Assembly: GCA_003482855.1 (NCBI GenBank)
Contig: DMXO01000005.1
Location: 227,719 to 291,718, forward strand
Length of the DNA: 64,000 nucleotides
Direction of reading: 5' to 3'
Origin: Candidatus Magasanikiibacteriota bacterium
GTDB taxonomy: Bacteria > Patescibacteriota > Patescibacteriia > Magasanikbacterales > UBA922
Part shown: positions 9,100-13,130 of the stretch, in pieces
Layout: the number at the start of each line of letters is the position of its first letter
How positions within the stretch are numbered: position 1 is the stretch's first letter
Position numbers and translations under genes: made by a program
Notes under the pieces: generated by a model
Told to the model about the DNA's origin: nothing
The model's database searches: none
What the model saw: the letters and a program-made list of their open reading frames with translations, nothing else

Positions 9100-9140
9100 T
9101 CAAATAAAAAATACCGCCATTGGGTGGTATTTGTTTTGTG
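9100..9140. terminator. bidirectional intrinsic terminator
   Basis: ATACCGCC-attg-GGTGGTAT flanked by A-run and T-runs. Ends hlyC-family (+) and the RelQ-like gene (-). On the - strand it is preceded by ATCCACAA, resembling the GTTCACAA+terminator modules at 11112, 12176 and 12755. Confidence 0.6.
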
Positions 9141-9165
9141 GATTTTGAGCGAATTACCGTTACTT

Positions 9166-9801
9166 TTATTTTTTTAGTCGTCTTACATACTTCACAATTT
9201 TTTCTAATTCGTTTGAAGCATTTTTTATATAGTTGTCCATTACTTTTTGCATCCTTTGTTTCAGTAGAGAATATTTTTTTTCATTTAGACTGTGTAAGTT
9301 CAAATCGTTTTTGTATAATATATCATGTTCTACTTCTGCCCATGCATGGTTGAGTATCAAGGCAAGCTGTATTTCGCATTCCAAATCTTTAAATTTTTTA
9401 TATTCGCTCAATCTAATTCTTTCATTCCCAAAATTGACAATAATATGAGTGGAACGGTACCCCGTCTTTTTTTCCGTTTCTTGTACAATAATTTTTTTGT
9501 CAAATTCATTTTTTAAACTATAAATGAATCGTTTACGTTCACTATCTGTATAAAATACCACTCGAATTCCAGCAATATCTTTGATGTCTGACAACCGTTT
9601 ATATATTTTGCCTCTCTGTCTTTTAGATTCAATTTTTTCTTTCAAACTATCGATCTCCTTAACCCGACTATTGAGATGATATTTATAATTGCCGGAATGA
9701 AGAATATTTTCAAGTAAAACATGGACAACATTACAGTATTCTGCATATAGGTTTCTTTTGATTCTATATTCAGCTAATATTTTTTTTAGATTTTTGTCCA
9801 T
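9166..9801 (-). CDS. RelA/SpoT-domain small alarmone synthetase (RelQ/RelP-like (p)ppGpp synthetase)
   Basis: 211 aa. Synthetase-domain motifs SRVKEIDSLKEK, DIAGIRVVFY (catalytic Asp), GYRSTHIIV, ECEIQLALILNHAWAEVEHDILYK. Collinear with Bacillus RelQ (YjbM). Confidence 0.75.
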   Translation of the reverse strand: MDKNLKKILAEYRIKRNLYAEYCNVVHVLLENILHSGNYKYHLNSRVKEIDSLKEKIESKRQRGKIYKRLSDIKDIAGIRVVFYTDSERKRFIYSLKNEFDKKIIVQETEKKTGYRSTHIIVNFGNERIRLSEYKKFKDLECEIQLALILNHAWAEVEHDILYKNDLNLHSLNEKKYSLLKQRMQKVMDNYIKNASNELEKIVKYVRRLKK

Positions 9802-9870
9802 AGTATGGTATGGTGAATTACAGTAGACGAGTTCTTACAACTTAGACTTGTTGACAATTGTTGTTTCTAA

Positions 9871-10020
9871 TTACAACATTTTTTGACCCCTGATTATCCT
9901 TACAAGTACTATAATAATAGCTATTATAAGTAAGATGTGAATGAAGCCACCAAGCGTGTAGGATGTGACGAGTCCAAGTAGCCATAAAATTATTAGAATG
10001 ATGGCAATAGTCCATAACAT
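9871..10020 (-). CDS. lmo0937-family small membrane protein (49 aa), unannotated in ORF track
   Basis: MLWTIAIILIILWLLGLVTSYTLGGFIHILLIIAIIIVLVRIIRGQKML. Matches the widespread MLWTI..LWLLG..YTLGG..IH.LL family. Confidence 0.6.
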   Translation of the reverse strand: MLWTIAIILIILWLLGLVTSYTLGGFIHILLIIAIIIVLVRIIRGQKML

Positions 10021-10160
10021 ATGATTTGGGTTAAAAATAAATTTTACTCGAATTATTTTTCTATACTCGGTTTAATTGATAAGGTGTGTCACCTCCATCC
10101 TAAGAGATGACACATCTATCAGTTCATAAACTAAGATATAAAAGATATCCTACCTAATTT

Positions 10161-10292
10161 TTAGGATTTATCAGCTTTTTCATCAGCCTTTTTGTCAGCA
10201 GCTGCATCTTTTTTTGCCATTTCTGCTCCTATCCCTAGGTTTTCTTTGACCTCATCTTTTTTTGTTTTGTCTGTGGTTTTGTCGTCTGTCAT
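10161..10292 (-). CDS. small K/D-rich hydrophilic protein (43 aa), possible CsbD/stress-protein-like
   Basis: MTDDKTTDKTKKDEVKENLGIGAEMAKKDAAADKKADEKADKS. Below the ORF-track cutoff, no clear SD. Confidence 0.3.
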   Translation of the reverse strand: MTDDKTTDKTKKDEVKENLGIGAEMAKKDAAADKKADEKADKS

Positions 10293-10474
10293 ATGATTTT
10301 TGTTATATATGAATAAAATTATTTTTTGTGAGGTTTATATTCACGTGTTGAATATACCTCGTATATCCTCAACAAGAGGTGGAGTAGGTGGTTTTGTTGC
10401 CATAGATAAGTGGTTAGTTGCACATCCTCATGGTTTTATGTGTGTCAAGTCTGTGCATTTTTTAAAGGGATTAT

Positions 10475-10825
10475 TTATTTTTTTGGTTGGAGAGCTTCTT
10501 GAATTGTTTTCACAACAGCCTGAACAAATGGATTACCATATTCAAGTTTGGGAAAAACTTTTTTTCCCCCGCGTTCTTTTTGCAACAATTTTGCGTGTTC
10601 CAAAATTTTTATGTGTTGTGATGCTAAGGGGAGTGATATGTCCAAAATTTGTGCGATATTGCTCACAGATATCTTGGGTTGTTGGGCAAGAATGCGAAAA
10701 ATTCGATAACGGTTGATGTCACTAAGTACCTTAAATGCTGCGGCCATACTCTTGTCAGTTTCACTAAATATCTTACGATTTTTTTGGATTTCTTTTTCAC
10801 TGATCATATATAAATTATTAAACAA
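10475..10825 (-). CDS. ArsR/SmtB family transcriptional regulator
   Basis: 116 aa. Winged HTH RYRIFRILAQQPKISVSNIAQILDISLPLASQHIKILEHAKLL. AT-rich imperfect palindrome ATTAAAcaattaTTTAAT in its own upstream region (10830-10850), a possible operator. Confidence 0.8.
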   Translation of the reverse strand: MFNNLYMISEKEIQKNRKIFSETDKSMAAAFKVLSDINRYRIFRILAQQPKISVSNIAQILDISLPLASQHIKILEHAKLLQKERGGKKVFPKLEYGNPFVQAVVKTIQEALQPKK

Positions 10826-10933
10826 TTATTTAATACTTTAATAATTGAAGTATATAATCTAATGTATGACTTGTCAATGATAAAATAGAACACCACGGTG
10901 TATAAGAGGTGTGTAACTTTTTGTTTATTTTAT

Positions 10934-11105
10934 GTGATTCGGCTCGCCTGCAAACGCTATGCGTTAGCATTGTGGGCAGGTTGGAAATCTCACGTCGTCG
11001 CCTCGCTCCTCCTGGTGGGGGAACCTTCGGGTTTCCTAGCCTTTCTTCTGCAAGTAAAACCTTACGGTTTCACCATTCCCTCGTTCGCTCCCCAGTTACG
11101 GCCAC
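10934..11105. repeat. GC-rich ~170-bp element A (homolog of element B at 12791-12940)
   Basis: Starts with gtgattcggctcgcc, a degenerate copy of the tRNA-Lys 3' end gtgatccggctgggg. Shares ~70% identity blocks with B (aatctcac, ggaaaccttcgg[g/a]tttccta, gttcg[c/a]tccccagt[t/c]acgg). Contains a GGAACC-UUCG-GGUUUCC hairpin. Confidence 0.55.
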
Positions 11106-11111
11106 AAAAAT

Positions 11112-11140
11112 AAAAAACTCACCATAAAGGTGAATTTTTT
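11112..11140 (-). terminator. intrinsic terminator for - strand gene 11232-12047
   Basis: TCACC-ataaa-GGTGA flanked by A/T runs. On the - strand it is preceded by GGTTCACAA. Confidence 0.55.
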
Positions 11141-11231
11141 ATTTGTGAACCTTATCGGGACAGCTGGCAAACTTTTGTAGTAACTTTGATGACAGAGTTG
11201 CAAGGGGTTGAGTACGATTAAATGTTAATCC

Positions 11232-12047
11232 TTATGGAAAAACAAATTTTAAACTCAAACATTTAAAAAATGGTAATGTTGATATTAGCAAAATTAATAT
11301 TACAAGCGAAACCAAAAAATATAATATAGTTTCTTTTAATGTTTGAATTGTTTTTTCTTTAGGCGCATTCAATAATCTCGGCACAGCTATCAAAAAAAAC
11401 GGTAATACAAAGACCTGTACGACATAAAATGTACACCAAATAGAAGGACTGGCAGTACAAACATCCAGAGAAAATTTAAAATACCCCCACAATACATAAA
11501 TTACACTCAGAATAAACGAAGTATCAAGGGTGGCAAGTAAGTAGGTTATTATTGTCTTTTTTGAAATATCACCTTCAAGTAATTTACGACCTTTTAATGC
11601 ACAGACATGAAAATATATAAATAACAACATCCAAGCTGAAGCCCACACAAAAGCAGAATTATGCTTGAGGTAAAAATTAAATTGTTCAAATGACATTTCA
11701 ATAAAGAATGCGTGCATTGCTACGCCACCAATGATCCACAAGGCGATTTTACTCCTAAGACTTCTATTTAAAATTACTTCTAGCGACCGCAGAAAAAAAT
11801 ACATCGATGAAATTGAAAGTATTAGTCCAATCTTGTAAACAATTTGATTTTGGGTTAATAAAGATAAAAATTCAAATATCTGATGGCCGCCAATAAGTGT
11901 AAAGGCTATAATTACATTTTTTAAAAAAGGTAGTAGCCACTTTTTTTGTATTGTCTGATATTTCATCAAAAACCATATATAATAAAATAAACTAAAGGCT
12001 AAAATTGTAGCACCAGTGGTTAATTGTACTTCTTTGCTATAGCACAT
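11232..12047 (-). CDS. hypothetical polytopic membrane protein
   Basis: 271 aa, about 8 hydrophobic helices. No recognisable catalytic motif. Confidence 0.5.
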   Translation of the reverse strand: MCYSKEVQLTTGATILAFSLFYYIWFLMKYQTIQKKWLLPFLKNVIIAFTLIGGHQIFEFLSLLTQNQIVYKIGLILSISSMYFFLRSLEVILNRSLRSKIALWIIGGVAMHAFFIEMSFEQFNFYLKHNSAFVWASAWMLLFIYFHVCALKGRKLLEGDISKKTIITYLLATLDTSFILSVIYVLWGYFKFSLDVCTASPSIWCTFYVVQVFVLPFFLIAVPRLLNAPKEKTIQTLKETILYFLVSLVILILLISTLPFFKCLSLKFVFP

Positions 12048-12175
12048 ATTATTTTTTAAAAAAGTCTATTAATTATTATACTCTTTTTGTTAACCATTTT
12101 ACAGTTCGAACGCCACCCGATTCTAACAACTTCTAACCATACACCGTCTGGTTCTGGCAAACTCAGATTTTGTCT

Positions 12176-12201
12176 TCGTATAGACAAGAAAACATCCTAT
12201 G
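12176..12201 (-). terminator. intrinsic terminator for - strand gene 12311-12580
   Basis: - strand CATCCTACGCCATAGGATG followed by UUUUCUU, preceded by GTTCACAA. A second hairpin GTCTTcgtataGACAAG follows. Confidence 0.55.
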
Positions 12202-12310
12202 GCGTAGGATGTCTCTAGTTGTGAACAAGGTCGGGACAGGTGGCAAACTTTTGTGGTGGAATTATTACTACAATTGCGAATTACAGATATTTTTGAAACT
12301 TTATTAATAA

Positions 12311-12580
12311 TTAAAGCTTAATTCCAAATTTAGATAAAATAAATATATAGATAGTATAAGCAATAAACATTACAAAAGATGATAGAATCATGGCCCAGCC
12401 AAATTTCATTCCTGTTTTAAGTAAAAATGGTAATATTATAAAAAATAAAAGTGATGGTAAAACCGCCCAAAATATACTCGTGGATAGACCAATTATCTTT
12501 TGGATGTCTTTTGTATCATGATACAGCCAAATAAGAGCCAAAATAGACACCAATGGCAAGGAAGCTATAACTGCTGCCAC
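12311..12580 (-). CDS. hypothetical small membrane protein (3 TM)
   Basis: 89 aa, hydrophobic throughout. Sits inside the repeat/terminator array. Confidence 0.4.
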   Translation of the reverse strand: MAAVIASLPLVSILALIWLYHDTKDIQKIIGLSTSIFWAVLPSLLFFIILPFLLKTGMKFGWAMILSSFVMFIAYTIYIFILSKFGIKL

Positions 12581-12754
12581 CGTGGTAAAACGTTTACTAA
12601 GTTCAGAGACACTAAAAATAATTAAGGCTGAAAGGATTATTTTTTATAATATATTGCATAGATAAAAGTTTAGTTTGGATAGTAAAATTATACGTTATTT
12701 GTACTAAATTAGCAAAATTTCGTTGGCAAACTCCATTTCAGCTTTTAATAGACA

Positions 12755-12790
12755 TAAAAAAACATCCTTTTGACGAGGATGTTTCTTTTT
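12755..12790 (-). terminator. intrinsic terminator (CATCCT-N7-AGGATG with U7 on the - strand) at the distal end of element B
   Basis: On the - strand it is preceded by CCGGATCACAAAAAG, a degenerate tRNA-Lys 3' end. Confidence 0.55.
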
Positions 12791-12940
12791 GTGATCCGGC
12801 TGGGGAATCTCACTGCTCGTCCTCATTTCATTCGGACTGCGCTTTAGGAAACCTTCGGATTTCCTAATATTCTTCCTCGGCATGTAGGGGGATATCTCCC
12901 CCTACCACCCCCTTGTTCGATCCCCAGTCACGGACTACGC
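12791..12940. repeat. GC-rich element B, bounded by an exact 16-nt duplication of the tRNA-Lys 3' end (12791-12806 = 12977-12992)
   Basis: gtgatccggctgggga occurs at 12791 and again inside tRNA-Lys (acceptor 3' strand, T-stem 3' strand and the first C of CCA). The interior is homologous to element A. Contains a perfect hairpin GUAGGGGGA-UAUC-UCCCCCUAC and an AGGAAAUC-CGAA-GGUUUCCU hairpin in - orientation. Confidence 0.6.
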
Positions 12941-12944
12941 AAAC

Positions 12945-12972
12945 TAAAAAACACCCGTCGGGTGTTTTTTAG
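12945..12972. terminator. bidirectional intrinsic terminator immediately downstream of tRNA-Lys
   Basis: A6-CACCC-gtcg-GGGTG-T6. Confidence 0.65.
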
Positions 12973-12977
12973 TTTGG

Positions 12978-13050
12978 TGATCCGGCTGGGGATCGAACCC
13001 AGGACCATCAGCTTAAAAGGCTGTTGCTCTACCAGCTGAGCTACCGGACC
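12978..13050 (-). tRNA. tRNA-Lys (anticodon TTT), CCA encoded (to 12975)
   Basis: - strand GGTCCGG TA GCTC AGCTGGTA GAGC A ACAGC CTTTTAA GCTGA TGGTC CTGGG TTCGATC CCCAG CCGGATC A CCA. G2:U71 wobble and A27:A43 mismatch. Confidence 0.8.
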
Positions 13051-13130
13051 GCATAAACGACCTTCGGTCGTCACGCGGCAAGCCTGCCGCAATTTTTAAT
13101 TTTCAATTTCAAATTTCGAATGATTTTTGA

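Follow-up and report, generated by a model that had tools for sequence, protein, structure and literature searches.

RtT-like structured elements carrying copies of tRNA 3' ends in the tRNA trailers of Patescibacteria

The 64,000-nucleotide (nt) stretch of contig DMXO01000005.1 from a Candidatus Magasanikiibacteriota bacterium analysed here (the window; all coordinates count from its first letter), part of a low-GC contig, carries on its minus strand, beyond a tRNA-Lys(UUU) gene, two copies of a small structured element, termed A and B. Together with nine further copies from other Patescibacteria, these form an undescribed, RtT-like family of tRNA-end-mimicking elements, of a kind that is known from Escherichia coli but unexplained. 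The family exists, its helices covary, its members sit in tRNA trailers, their arms bear the local tRNA's sequence in most copies, and its plan resembles that of the E. coli RtT RNA. The explanation that we favour, with a little more than even confidence, is that A and B are copies of a structured element of tRNA 3' trailers, the Patescibacteria counterpart of RtT, and that the tract in which they lie would have grown by local duplication and not through an integrase; the function of the elements and their mode of spread we infer. The features on which this explanation turns are the following, with the elements read in the direction of the tRNA.

12975..13050, minus strand: tRNA-Lys(UUU), called by ARAGORN and by the Rfam tRNA model (68.5 bits).
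12975-12992, minus strand: "master" sequence X, the last 18 nt of tRNA-Lys, TCCCCAGCCGGATCACCA.
12940..12976, minus strand: T0, a perfect 18-bp palindrome with A- and T-tracts (inverted repeat I6).
12789..12939, minus strand: element B, an RtT-like structured element (fold; covariance model (CM) match of 118.7 bits).
Within element B, minus strand: 5' arm 12915-12938; P2 12884-12906; P3 12844-12867; P4 12819-12837; GUGAGAU 12807-12813.
12789-12806, minus strand: 3' arm of element B; positions 12791-12806 duplicate the tRNA-Lys 3' end exactly.
12756..12788, minus strand: T1, the terminator hairpin 3' of element B (terminator scan; repeat D2, 71% identity).
11103..11147, minus strand: T3, a bidirectional terminator-like hairpin preceding element A (inverted repeat I8), homologous to T0.
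10963..11107, minus strand: element A, an RtT-like structured element (CM match of 119.8 bits).
Within element A, minus strand: 5' arm 11083-11105; P2 11054-11074 (GUAA loop); P3 11020-11036; P4 10997-11008.
10970-10987, minus strand: 3' arm of element A, TTTCCAACCTGCCCACAA, which is not tRNA-Lys-like.
10930..10968, minus strand: tail 3' of element A, with a small hairpin (10950-10968) and a tRNA-Lys-3'-end-like fragment, GAGCCGAATCACATAA (10930-10945).

Elements A (11107-10963) and B (12939-12789) are 70% identical, and the fold of B, at -65.9 kcal/mol, lies well below that of shuffled sequences (z = -5.5). Neither element has a match in Rfam at the gathering threshold or at E <= 10, where only tRNAs and noise were returned, and with ARAGORN and the Rfam tRNA and transfer-messenger RNA (tmRNA) models the elements were not called and no cloverleaf or tRNA-like T-arm domain was found. 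The nine copies outside the window came from several kinds of search. A loose DNA pattern scan with CTGGGGANCGAACNAGGG gave, among the matches listed, a single true match, in Candidatus Uhrbacteria (L026), the rest being chance matches in GC-rich genomes; L128 and L129 were recovered by a two-anchor metagenome scan, and L162, L164, L166 and L167 by a protein search with translated conserved open frames, the copies being overlain by spurious calls of open reading frames (ORFs). Each of the nine is preceded, at a few tens of bases and on the same strand, by a tRNA gene or by an earlier copy. The tRNAs concerned are Lys(CUU) (two copies in tandem), Lys(UUU), Gly(UCC), Phe(GAA), Arg(GCG), Ser(UGA) (two copies in tandem) and one partial class-II tRNA, so that outside the window the family adjoins six identified tRNA species and seven tRNA genes. 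Over the whole set of 11, a tRNA or a preceding copy stands ahead of 10, the tRNA being fully called for nine and partial for L167.

The elements, about 135-160 nt in length, share a common fold, for which the counts refer to the 31 modelled pairs of helices P1, P2 and P3 in the CM alignment of the 11 copies, P4 lying outside the model. The helix cells are paired in 92% of cases, as against 78.8% in shuffles (a value reached by 0 of 500), and sliding the partners by 1-3 columns lowers the figure to 26-53%; compensatory change on both sides is seen in 21 of the 31 pairs. P1, the closing helix, covaries (both-sided change in 10 of the 11 pairs of helices 1 and 2), and at its inner end CGAAC lies opposite GUGAG, a possible tandem G-A motif. 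The P2 hairpin has a GNRA loop in 10 of 11 copies, with GNNA also counted among its loop types, and the P3 hairpin has a nearly invariant tip, CCCGAAGG, with a CGAA loop. P4 is variable in length and, by eye, shows compensatory stems (CCCUCCG/CGGAGGG, CCCC/GGGG and GACAAAUUAC/GUAAUUUGUC) closed by GNA or CGAA loops. The junction strands, AGGGAAGG and UGAGGAAAG, are purine-rich and conserved, the stems varying while the junctions are held.

Several known systems were considered and rejected. For tmRNA, an RNase P-like GAGGAAAG, the hammerhead CUGAnGA, T-boxes, retrons and bridge or omega RNAs, the conserved positions did not fit by eye, and there was no partner gene and no Rfam match. TIGR-Tas arrays have much shorter units and were set aside on that length. 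Group I introns of Patescibacteria tRNA genes insert in the anticodon loop (PMC13011429), and they were rejected on that position.

The arms of the elements follow the local tRNA. In 8 of the 11 copies the 3' strand of P1 repeats exactly the last 15-20 nt of the upstream tRNA, and the repeated stretch takes in the discriminator and, where the tRNA gene encodes it, the CCA. The copied sequence varies from locus to locus, being CCGGATCA in the window and in L128, CCGACGCACCA in L026, CATCCGCTCA behind tRNA-Gly, CCTCGGCACCA behind tRNA-Phe and GCGAGTGCA behind tRNA-Arg. The 5' arm is the reverse complement of the tRNA T-loop, the 3' strand of the T-stem and the start of the acceptor strand, and it tracks the unusual T-loops of L164, L167 and the first copy of L166 (L166a). 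In the tandem pair Uhr1 and Uhr2, the cores are identical at 44 of 90 columns and the 3' arms at 19 of 20. At all eight tRNA-adjacent loci, the segment that starts at the tRNA T-loop and takes in the whole 5' arm folds as one long hairpin with the terminator at its tip (-34 to -59 kcal/mol), and a similar long hairpin forms between successive elements. In the window, a long quasi-palindrome extends between the tRNA 3' end and the 5' arm of element B, with T0, a bidirectional terminator-like hairpin immediately 3' of tRNA-Lys, at its tip (fold of 12912-12999, -59.4 kcal/mol). Element A, the 3' arm of which is unlike tRNA-Lys, is an exception to the copying of the tRNA end; it lies 1.9 kb from tRNA-Lys, with a degenerate copy of the tRNA end just ahead of it. 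This copy, in the 3' untranslated region (3'UTR) of the ORF of a 271-residue membrane protein, has its palindromic partner downstream, in the 5' arm of element A, and the two form the same kind of long hairpin (-33.5 kcal/mol). The rule is thus that the 5' arm is the palindromic partner of the upstream copy of the tRNA end and that the 3' arm pairs with the element's own 5' arm.

The known system closest in plan is RtT. The RtT repeats of the tyrT locus have been known since 1978-1991. RtT RNA (rttR, Rfam RF00391) derives from the 178-bp repeats of the E. coli tyrT-tyrV operon, the locus retrieved for comparison; according to a 2024 preprint (10.1101/2024.07.17.603846) it has a part in the processing of the tyrT transcript and probably also in the stringent response, by a mode of action that is unknown. 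RF00391 finds four units at the tyrT locus (133-138 bits), and all RF00391 matches obtained were from E. coli. Like the Patescibacteria copies, RtT units immediately follow a tRNA gene, in the same orientation and singly or in tandem, and end in a copy of the last nucleotides of that tRNA: all four E. coli units end in AATCCTTCCCCCACCACCA, the last 19 nt of tRNA-Tyr including the CCA, compared with the 15-20 nt of 8 of the 11 Patescibacteria copies. In the RF00391 consensus, the 5' segment GGGGAAGG pairs with the tRNA-Tyr-derived CCUUCCCC, closing the structure as P1 does here, and by folding the tRNA-Tyr end just upstream likewise has the E. coli 5' arm as its inverted partner. The E. coli unit is likewise a multi-hairpin fold, with a GCGAAGC mini-hairpin as in several Patescibacteria copies, and the motifs GGGAAGGGUGArAACC, CCCGAAGG and GAGGAGCGAAGCGACGA are collinear in both; the last of these is a 17-nt block that is identical, and at the same offset, in L128 and in the unit of the tyrT-tyrV spacer (Smith-Waterman z = 7.9; 0 of 300 shuffles). 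There are also differences. The Patescibacteria copies follow many tRNA species, whereas RtT follows tRNA-Tyr only; their hairpins are bracketed by A and T tracts, and hence are terminator-like; their core retains AGGGAAGG as an internal motif, with an outer arm added from the local tRNA; and they contain no Tpr-like ORF. The elements are called RtT-like on their shared architecture and not as members of RF00391; common descent with RtT is plausible. It is of note that in E. coli SK1144 (L168, NZ_AP018784.2, 2698163-2699473) the two tRNA-Tyr genes are only 33 nt apart and are directly followed by a fatty acid desaturase gene, and the RtT repeats of K-12 seem to be missing or replaced there. 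Other functional RNAs in a tRNA trailer, or with an end matured by tRNA-processing enzymes, are E. coli 3'ETS-leuZ and the mascRNA/MALAT1-type ends, to which the elements are similar in this respect; RNAs of this type are not known to have a copy of the neighbouring tRNA's 3' strand, an inverted arm or such a core.

The elements are probably tRNA-trailer RNAs that mimic the tRNA 3' end. The unit runs, in order, from a terminator-like hairpin through the 5' arm, the P2/P3/P4 core and the 3' arm to a second terminator-like hairpin. Read-through past the tRNA terminator would transcribe the element, the two arms would fold into P1 and imitate the stacked acceptor and T stems of that tRNA, and maturation of the tRNA 3' end would free a stable RNA ending like a tRNA. 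The role assigned to tRNA maturation in setting this end is based on the E. coli annotation, which places the end of rttR exactly at the CCA of the tRNA-like 19-mer. The released RNA could then act as a mimic of, or a competitor for, the tRNA 3' end. The arms might be kept matched in one of two ways: either by selection for both pairings, that of the 5' arm with the upstream tRNA end and that of the 5' arm with its own 3' arm, or by copying on a hairpin template (quasi-palindrome copying), in which the tRNA would be the master and for which L166a looks like an intermediate.

A number of observations weigh against this explanation. RF00391 reports no copy at E <= 10 in the window tract and five other loci (its gathering threshold is 45 bits). 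Profile similarity to RtT is marginal: with our own CMs the E. coli unit is matched at E = 0.005-0.014 and the opposite strand just as well, and nhmmer gives E = 1.7-8.4 against RtT in a 1.3-Mb background. At L166 the arms mismatch the adjacent tRNA-Ser, both copies sharing one non-Ser 3' end that looks tRNA-Leu-like, while the 5' arm of L166a is a perfect 14-nt complement of the adjacent tRNA-Ser. No RtT-like element stands at the orthologous tRNA-Lys of five relatives, which fits a dispensable or mobile element. Processing of a tRNA end needs no identity to a particular neighbouring tRNA, and the route by which the core reaches new tRNA loci is not accounted for. The Patescibacteria copies are known from DNA sequence alone, and the case for the putative strand has three grounds only: the loop types (GNRA and GNA), the tRNA end, which is complete on that strand, and the analogy to RtT. 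The helices themselves give no strand signal (11 G-U against 12 A-C), and on the opposite strand P3 would have a UNCG loop, so that a role at the DNA level or on both strands is compatible with the data.

These last points bear on an explanation confined to DNA, in which the palindromes would act, for example, as cruciforms in replication or recombination at tRNA terminators and the arms would be by-products of quasi-palindrome correction. The long quasi-palindrome centred on the terminator in every locus and the equal G-U and A-C counts speak for it. On the other hand, the GNRA/GNA loop pattern is specific to the tRNA strand, a folded single strand typically shows such conserved single-stranded junctions and such compensatory changes as are seen in P2-P4, and E. 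coli RtT is annotated as a small RNA, rttR. We therefore regard a purely DNA-level system as quite unlikely.

The tRNA-trailer explanation must also account for the tract in which A and B lie, the remaining features of which are as follows.

12311..12580, minus strand: ORF of an 89-residue membrane protein of the PRK09272 / PF28289 family.
12219..12251, minus strand: 3'UTR motif D3b, AAAGTTTGCCACCTG followed by a degenerate tRNA-Lys 3'-end copy, TCCCGACCTTGTTCACAA (12219-12236).
12189..12215, minus strand: T2, the terminator hairpin after the 89-residue unit.
11232..12047, minus strand: ORF of the 271-residue membrane protein, without a family match.
11143..11175, minus strand: 3'UTR motif D3a, AAAGTTTGCCAGCTG followed by a degenerate tRNA-3'-end copy, TCCCGATAAGGTTCACAA (11143-11160).
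9109..10825, minus strand: distal block, with ArsR, 43-residue, lmo0937-family and RelA_SpoT genes and a terminator.
10475-10825, minus strand: ArsR-type regulator.
10161-10292, minus strand: 43-residue ORF.
9871-10020, minus strand: 49-residue protein of the lmo0937 family.
9166-9801, minus strand: RelA_SpoT/small alarmone synthetase-like protein of 211 residues.
9109-9132, minus strand: T5, a T0-like terminator.

A first-pass annotation of this DNA had described the tract as tandem units built out from the tRNA-Lys end, each closing with a degenerate copy of that end and a terminator, and had read them as traces of serial integration. The observation is largely right and the att-site interpretation is not. 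The 16-nt duplication of the tRNA-Lys 3' end that it reported is exact (12791-12806 = 12977-12992), and local alignments against shuffles bear out, with z values of 6-14, a tract of repeated modules of the form [tRNA-3'-end-like + terminator] that derive from the tRNA-Lys end. The tRNA 3' end with T0 resembles the 3' end of B with T1 (z = 12), and the tRNA 3' end with T0 and the start of B resembles the 271-residue ORF's 3'UTR motif with T3 and the start of A (z = 6.4). Similarly, the end of B with T1 up to AGTTTGCCA resembles the 3'UTR motif of the 89-residue ORF with T2 up to AGTTTGCCA (z = 10, T1 and T2 being homologous at z = 10), D3a resembles D3b (z = 14), and T0 resembles the terminator of the RelA_SpoT (RelQ-like) unit (z = 6.6). 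By hand count, the copies in D3a and D3b agree with the tRNA-Lys end at 12 of 18 positions. Only the longer modules are significant, and the RelQ-like unit shares the terminator only, its supposed tRNA-like part being weak. The short motif WTCACAA is not enriched, with 28 occurrences against 39.7 expected. Three of the four annotated terminators were found (at 9109-9132, 11103-11147 and 12756-12788), and the third in order lies at 12189-12215 and not at 12176-12201, about 14 nt away. Nor is GAGCCGAATCACATAA (10930-10945) the end of element A, the true 3' arm of which is TTTCCAACCTGCCCACAA; GAGCCGAATCACATAA lies further downstream, with no U-tract terminator after it.

The AGTTTGCCA-like sequence that had been noted at the starts of the units does occur there, but the unit ends carry it too. 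There are six copies of AGTTTGCCA in the window against 0.9 expected (reached by 0 of 100 shuffles), four of them on the minus strand within 1.6 kb (11165-12732), where they stand on both sides of the 89-residue ORF (12724-12732 and 12241-12249) and of the 271-residue ORF (12155-12163 and 11165-11173). They thus make a 9-bp direct-repeat-like pair per gene, which resembles the sequence after T0, AGTTTGCG; a promoter -35 region, an operator and a duplication junction are candidate roles. Taken together, the alignments show the tract to be a patchwork of duplicated [tRNA-3'-end-like + terminator] modules. It probably arose as modules of the form [tRNA-3'-end + terminator (+ element)] were duplicated locally time after time, small genes lying between the copies, and not from insertions by an integrase.

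Insertion by an integrase was the reading of the first-pass annotation, in which the 16-nt repeat is a classic att core and the units are scars of serial insertions at the tRNA-Lys 3' end, remnant islands each ending in an attR core. The likeness to tRNA att sites is real: there is a direct repeat of the tRNA 3' end beyond an intact tRNA, exact over 16 nt and decaying into degenerate copies with distance from the tRNA, and the flank is a hot spot for foreign DNA in relatives, one of which has a serine recombinase island here. Unlike at such sites, the repeat belongs to the element itself as the 3' strand of its closing helix, hence half of a covarying helix in an element conserved at many other tRNAs, and an inverted copy is present too. 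The exact repeats bracket T0 and element B alone, about 170 non-coding bases with no cargo genes. The absence of an integrase gene from the window, already remarked, holds: Pfam scans of the 28 window proteins revealed no recombinase family, and tblastn of the window with two serine recombinases from related loci gave only a spurious match of 21 residues to the tRNA-Lys gene, due to an ORF whose call in relative L161 overlaps the tRNA. By eye, the remaining ORFs of the window are housekeeping-like. Large serine recombinases would, moreover, not leave direct repeats of 16-20 nt, and the same minimal "remnant" at eight independent loci is implausible. Scars of serial integration are thus hardly credible. 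A prophage remnant was rejected on size and recurrence; it would need the same deletion in every locus.

Comparison with five syntenic relatives shows that the tRNA-Lys flank is a variable hot spot and that the 3.9-kb tract is lineage-specific, since the RtT-like element is absent from all five. The tRNA-Lys gene stands next to a P-type ATPase gene in at least four of the five, L159 having only pseudo-copies, at the start of its contig. In L154 and L160 the intact tRNA-Lys is followed only by a terminator and a convergent gene, with no tract. L161 has an intact tRNA-Lys, identical by inspection to that of the window, then its own terminator and the convergent gene of a 579-residue serine recombinase at the edge of a gene island, again with no tract; in L156 and L159 a small GIY-YIG ORF is found with partial tRNA-Lys copies downstream. 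The first-pass annotation had proposed looking for presence or absence of units at the repeat boundaries. Variation of the flank is plain; the exact boundaries of the tract could not be placed because the distal flank differs between relatives and is not shared.

These flanks have features of their own. In L156 (6680-7064, minus strand) and L159 (1-412) the GIY-YIG ORF, of 74-91 residues, comes right after tRNA-Lys or replaces it, and is followed by partial or degenerate tRNA-Lys copies that begin at the D-arm and reach the 3' end, their anticodon arm being altered; in the two pseudo-copies of L159 a hairpin replaces the 5' strand of the anticodon stem, and ARAGORN calls no tRNA. In L161 (1-7230) the large serine recombinase gene ends at the tRNA, the island beside it holds OLD-like nuclease, MazG-like and HNH genes, and the 5' end of the tRNA has a 13-nt copy, GGTCCGGTAGCTC, some 100 nt upstream of the gene. 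Two GC-rich hairpins 5' of tRNA-Lys, ACGACCTTCGGTCGT and GCGGCAAGCCTGCCGC, are common to the window (13051-13100) and L161 (7112-7160). The contig of L128, which carries a tRNA-Lys-linked element, also has the gene of a 546-residue large serine recombinase abutting tRNA-Gly(CCC) (11167-12807, minus strand).

Such a flank raises the question of mobility. A non-autonomous miniature element could home to tRNA 3' ends, the core serving as scaffold and the arms, which are able to pair with either strand of the tRNA gene end, as target-matching segments, by means of a recombinase or nuclease encoded elsewhere or of hairpin-templated copy-in, with arrays formed by repeated insertion. Copies at six identified tRNA species (seven genes) with arms that match the local tRNA in most cases would be expected of such an element, as would the patchy occurrence among close relatives, tandem arrays with diverged cores and identical arms, and the intermediate-like L166a, in which the 5' arm matches tRNA-Ser and the 3' arm does not. 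The lack of G-U/A-C asymmetry, the bidirectional flanking hairpins and the palindromic design fit action at the DNA level, and the flank in relatives hosts GIY-YIG ORFs and the serine recombinase island. On the other hand, no recombinase or nuclease gene is consistently nearby, the neighbours being housekeeping genes: the ORFs adjoining the copies in L128, L162 and L164 gave no recombinase-like families, and for the sigma-like protein beside the L026 copies a search for homologues yielded that protein alone. Three scans of viral contigs and BLAST of phage records gave no true copy, and BLAST of plasmids gave a single weak match, probably unrelated. Among the relatives compared there is no empty and filled pair with exact boundaries, and the E. 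coli counterpart is a documented processed RNA. Being small, non-coding and multicopy, with inverted termini and a patchy distribution, the elements recall miniature inverted-repeat transposable elements (MITEs), but here it is the interior that is conserved and the termini that change, in most copies with the local tRNA, the reverse of MITEs, and no target-site duplication or transposase was identified. We hold homing to be unlikely.

The weak plasmid match (L170, Photobacterium damselae NZ_CP146975.1, BLAST E 0.3; locus positions 390-450 and 590-650) contains the segment GGGAGGAGCG(A/C)AGCGACGGAATGAACCGAGCGATAGCGAGAACG twice, and has the motifs GAGGAGCGAAGCGACG and GAGCGAnAGCGAGAACG in common with RtT and the Patescibacteria elements; no annotated tRNA adjoins it. 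At L128 (6590-7200), directly 3' of the RtT-like element and its terminator, lies a segment of about 600 nt with a GC content of 50-71% in a contig of 40%, for which Rfam gave no match and the ORFs no Pfam match, one ORF of 141 residues having a CxxC...CxxC pattern.

The genes that follow the elements bear on a further explanation, in which the element is a leader or attenuator, its core a domain binding a ligand or factor and the following terminator an expression platform that controls read-through into the next gene. A terminator-like hairpin does follow most copies, the next gene is on the same strand in the seven readable loci, and the junction nucleotides are highly conserved while the stems vary. 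However, the downstream genes are mutually unrelated (a membrane protein, ArsR, a sigma-like protein, tRNA-Met and genes of no known kind), a predicted promoter sits between element A and the ArsR gene, and the tRNA-derived arms are left unexplained, so that we find an attenuator very unlikely.

The gene labels of the first-pass annotation (RelA_SpoT/YjbM-like, lmo0937 family and ArsR) were confirmed. The 211-residue RelA_SpoT-domain protein scores 46 bits, far below the YjbM equivalog cut-off of 320, and matches the PADLOC candidate defence family PDC-S33 (E = 1.5e-17); its gene is on the same strand as, and downstream of, element A, ArsR, the 43-residue ORF and the lmo0937-family ORF. The 89-residue ORF matches residues 28-116 alone of the 116-residue PRK09272 profile, and may have an N-terminal truncation or another start (12311-12660). 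A protein identical to the 271-residue one is encoded on contigs from groundwater metagenomes, and the Translin-like protein of the window has its nearest matches in proteins assigned by their sources to Candidatus Magasanikbacteria.

For the favoured explanation, a tRNA-trailer element related in plan to RtT, the comparison gives evidence on a possible constraint, in which the 3' arm would keep its identity to the tRNA 3' end and the 5' arm would pair both with the upstream tRNA end and with its own 3' arm. It opens the hypotheses of tRNA-end mimicry, processing by tRNA maturation enzymes and hairpin-templated homogenisation. It also carries a caution, namely that short repeats of tRNA 3' ends beside tRNA genes are not always integrase att sites. 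A bolder possibility, which we consider doubtful, is that the unit is a self-propagating "programmable" cassette with a conserved scaffold, both arms of which are rewritten from the 3' end of the upstream tRNA by hairpin-templated copying or guided homing, and that RtT is a relic of it. If so, tailor-made mimics of individual tRNA ends would be spread across Patescibacteria, and these could titrate readers of uncharged or damaged tRNA 3' ends, such as RelA and small alarmone synthetases or CCA-modifying toxins. In the window, the RelA_SpoT-family gene follows element A on its strand at a distance of about 1.2 kb, separated from it by three small genes, and a link between that gene and a tRNA-end mimic is speculation. 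From the point of view of the family, the occurrence of RtT-related elements behind many tRNAs in a distant, genome-reduced phylum would turn RtT from a single-locus curiosity into a class.

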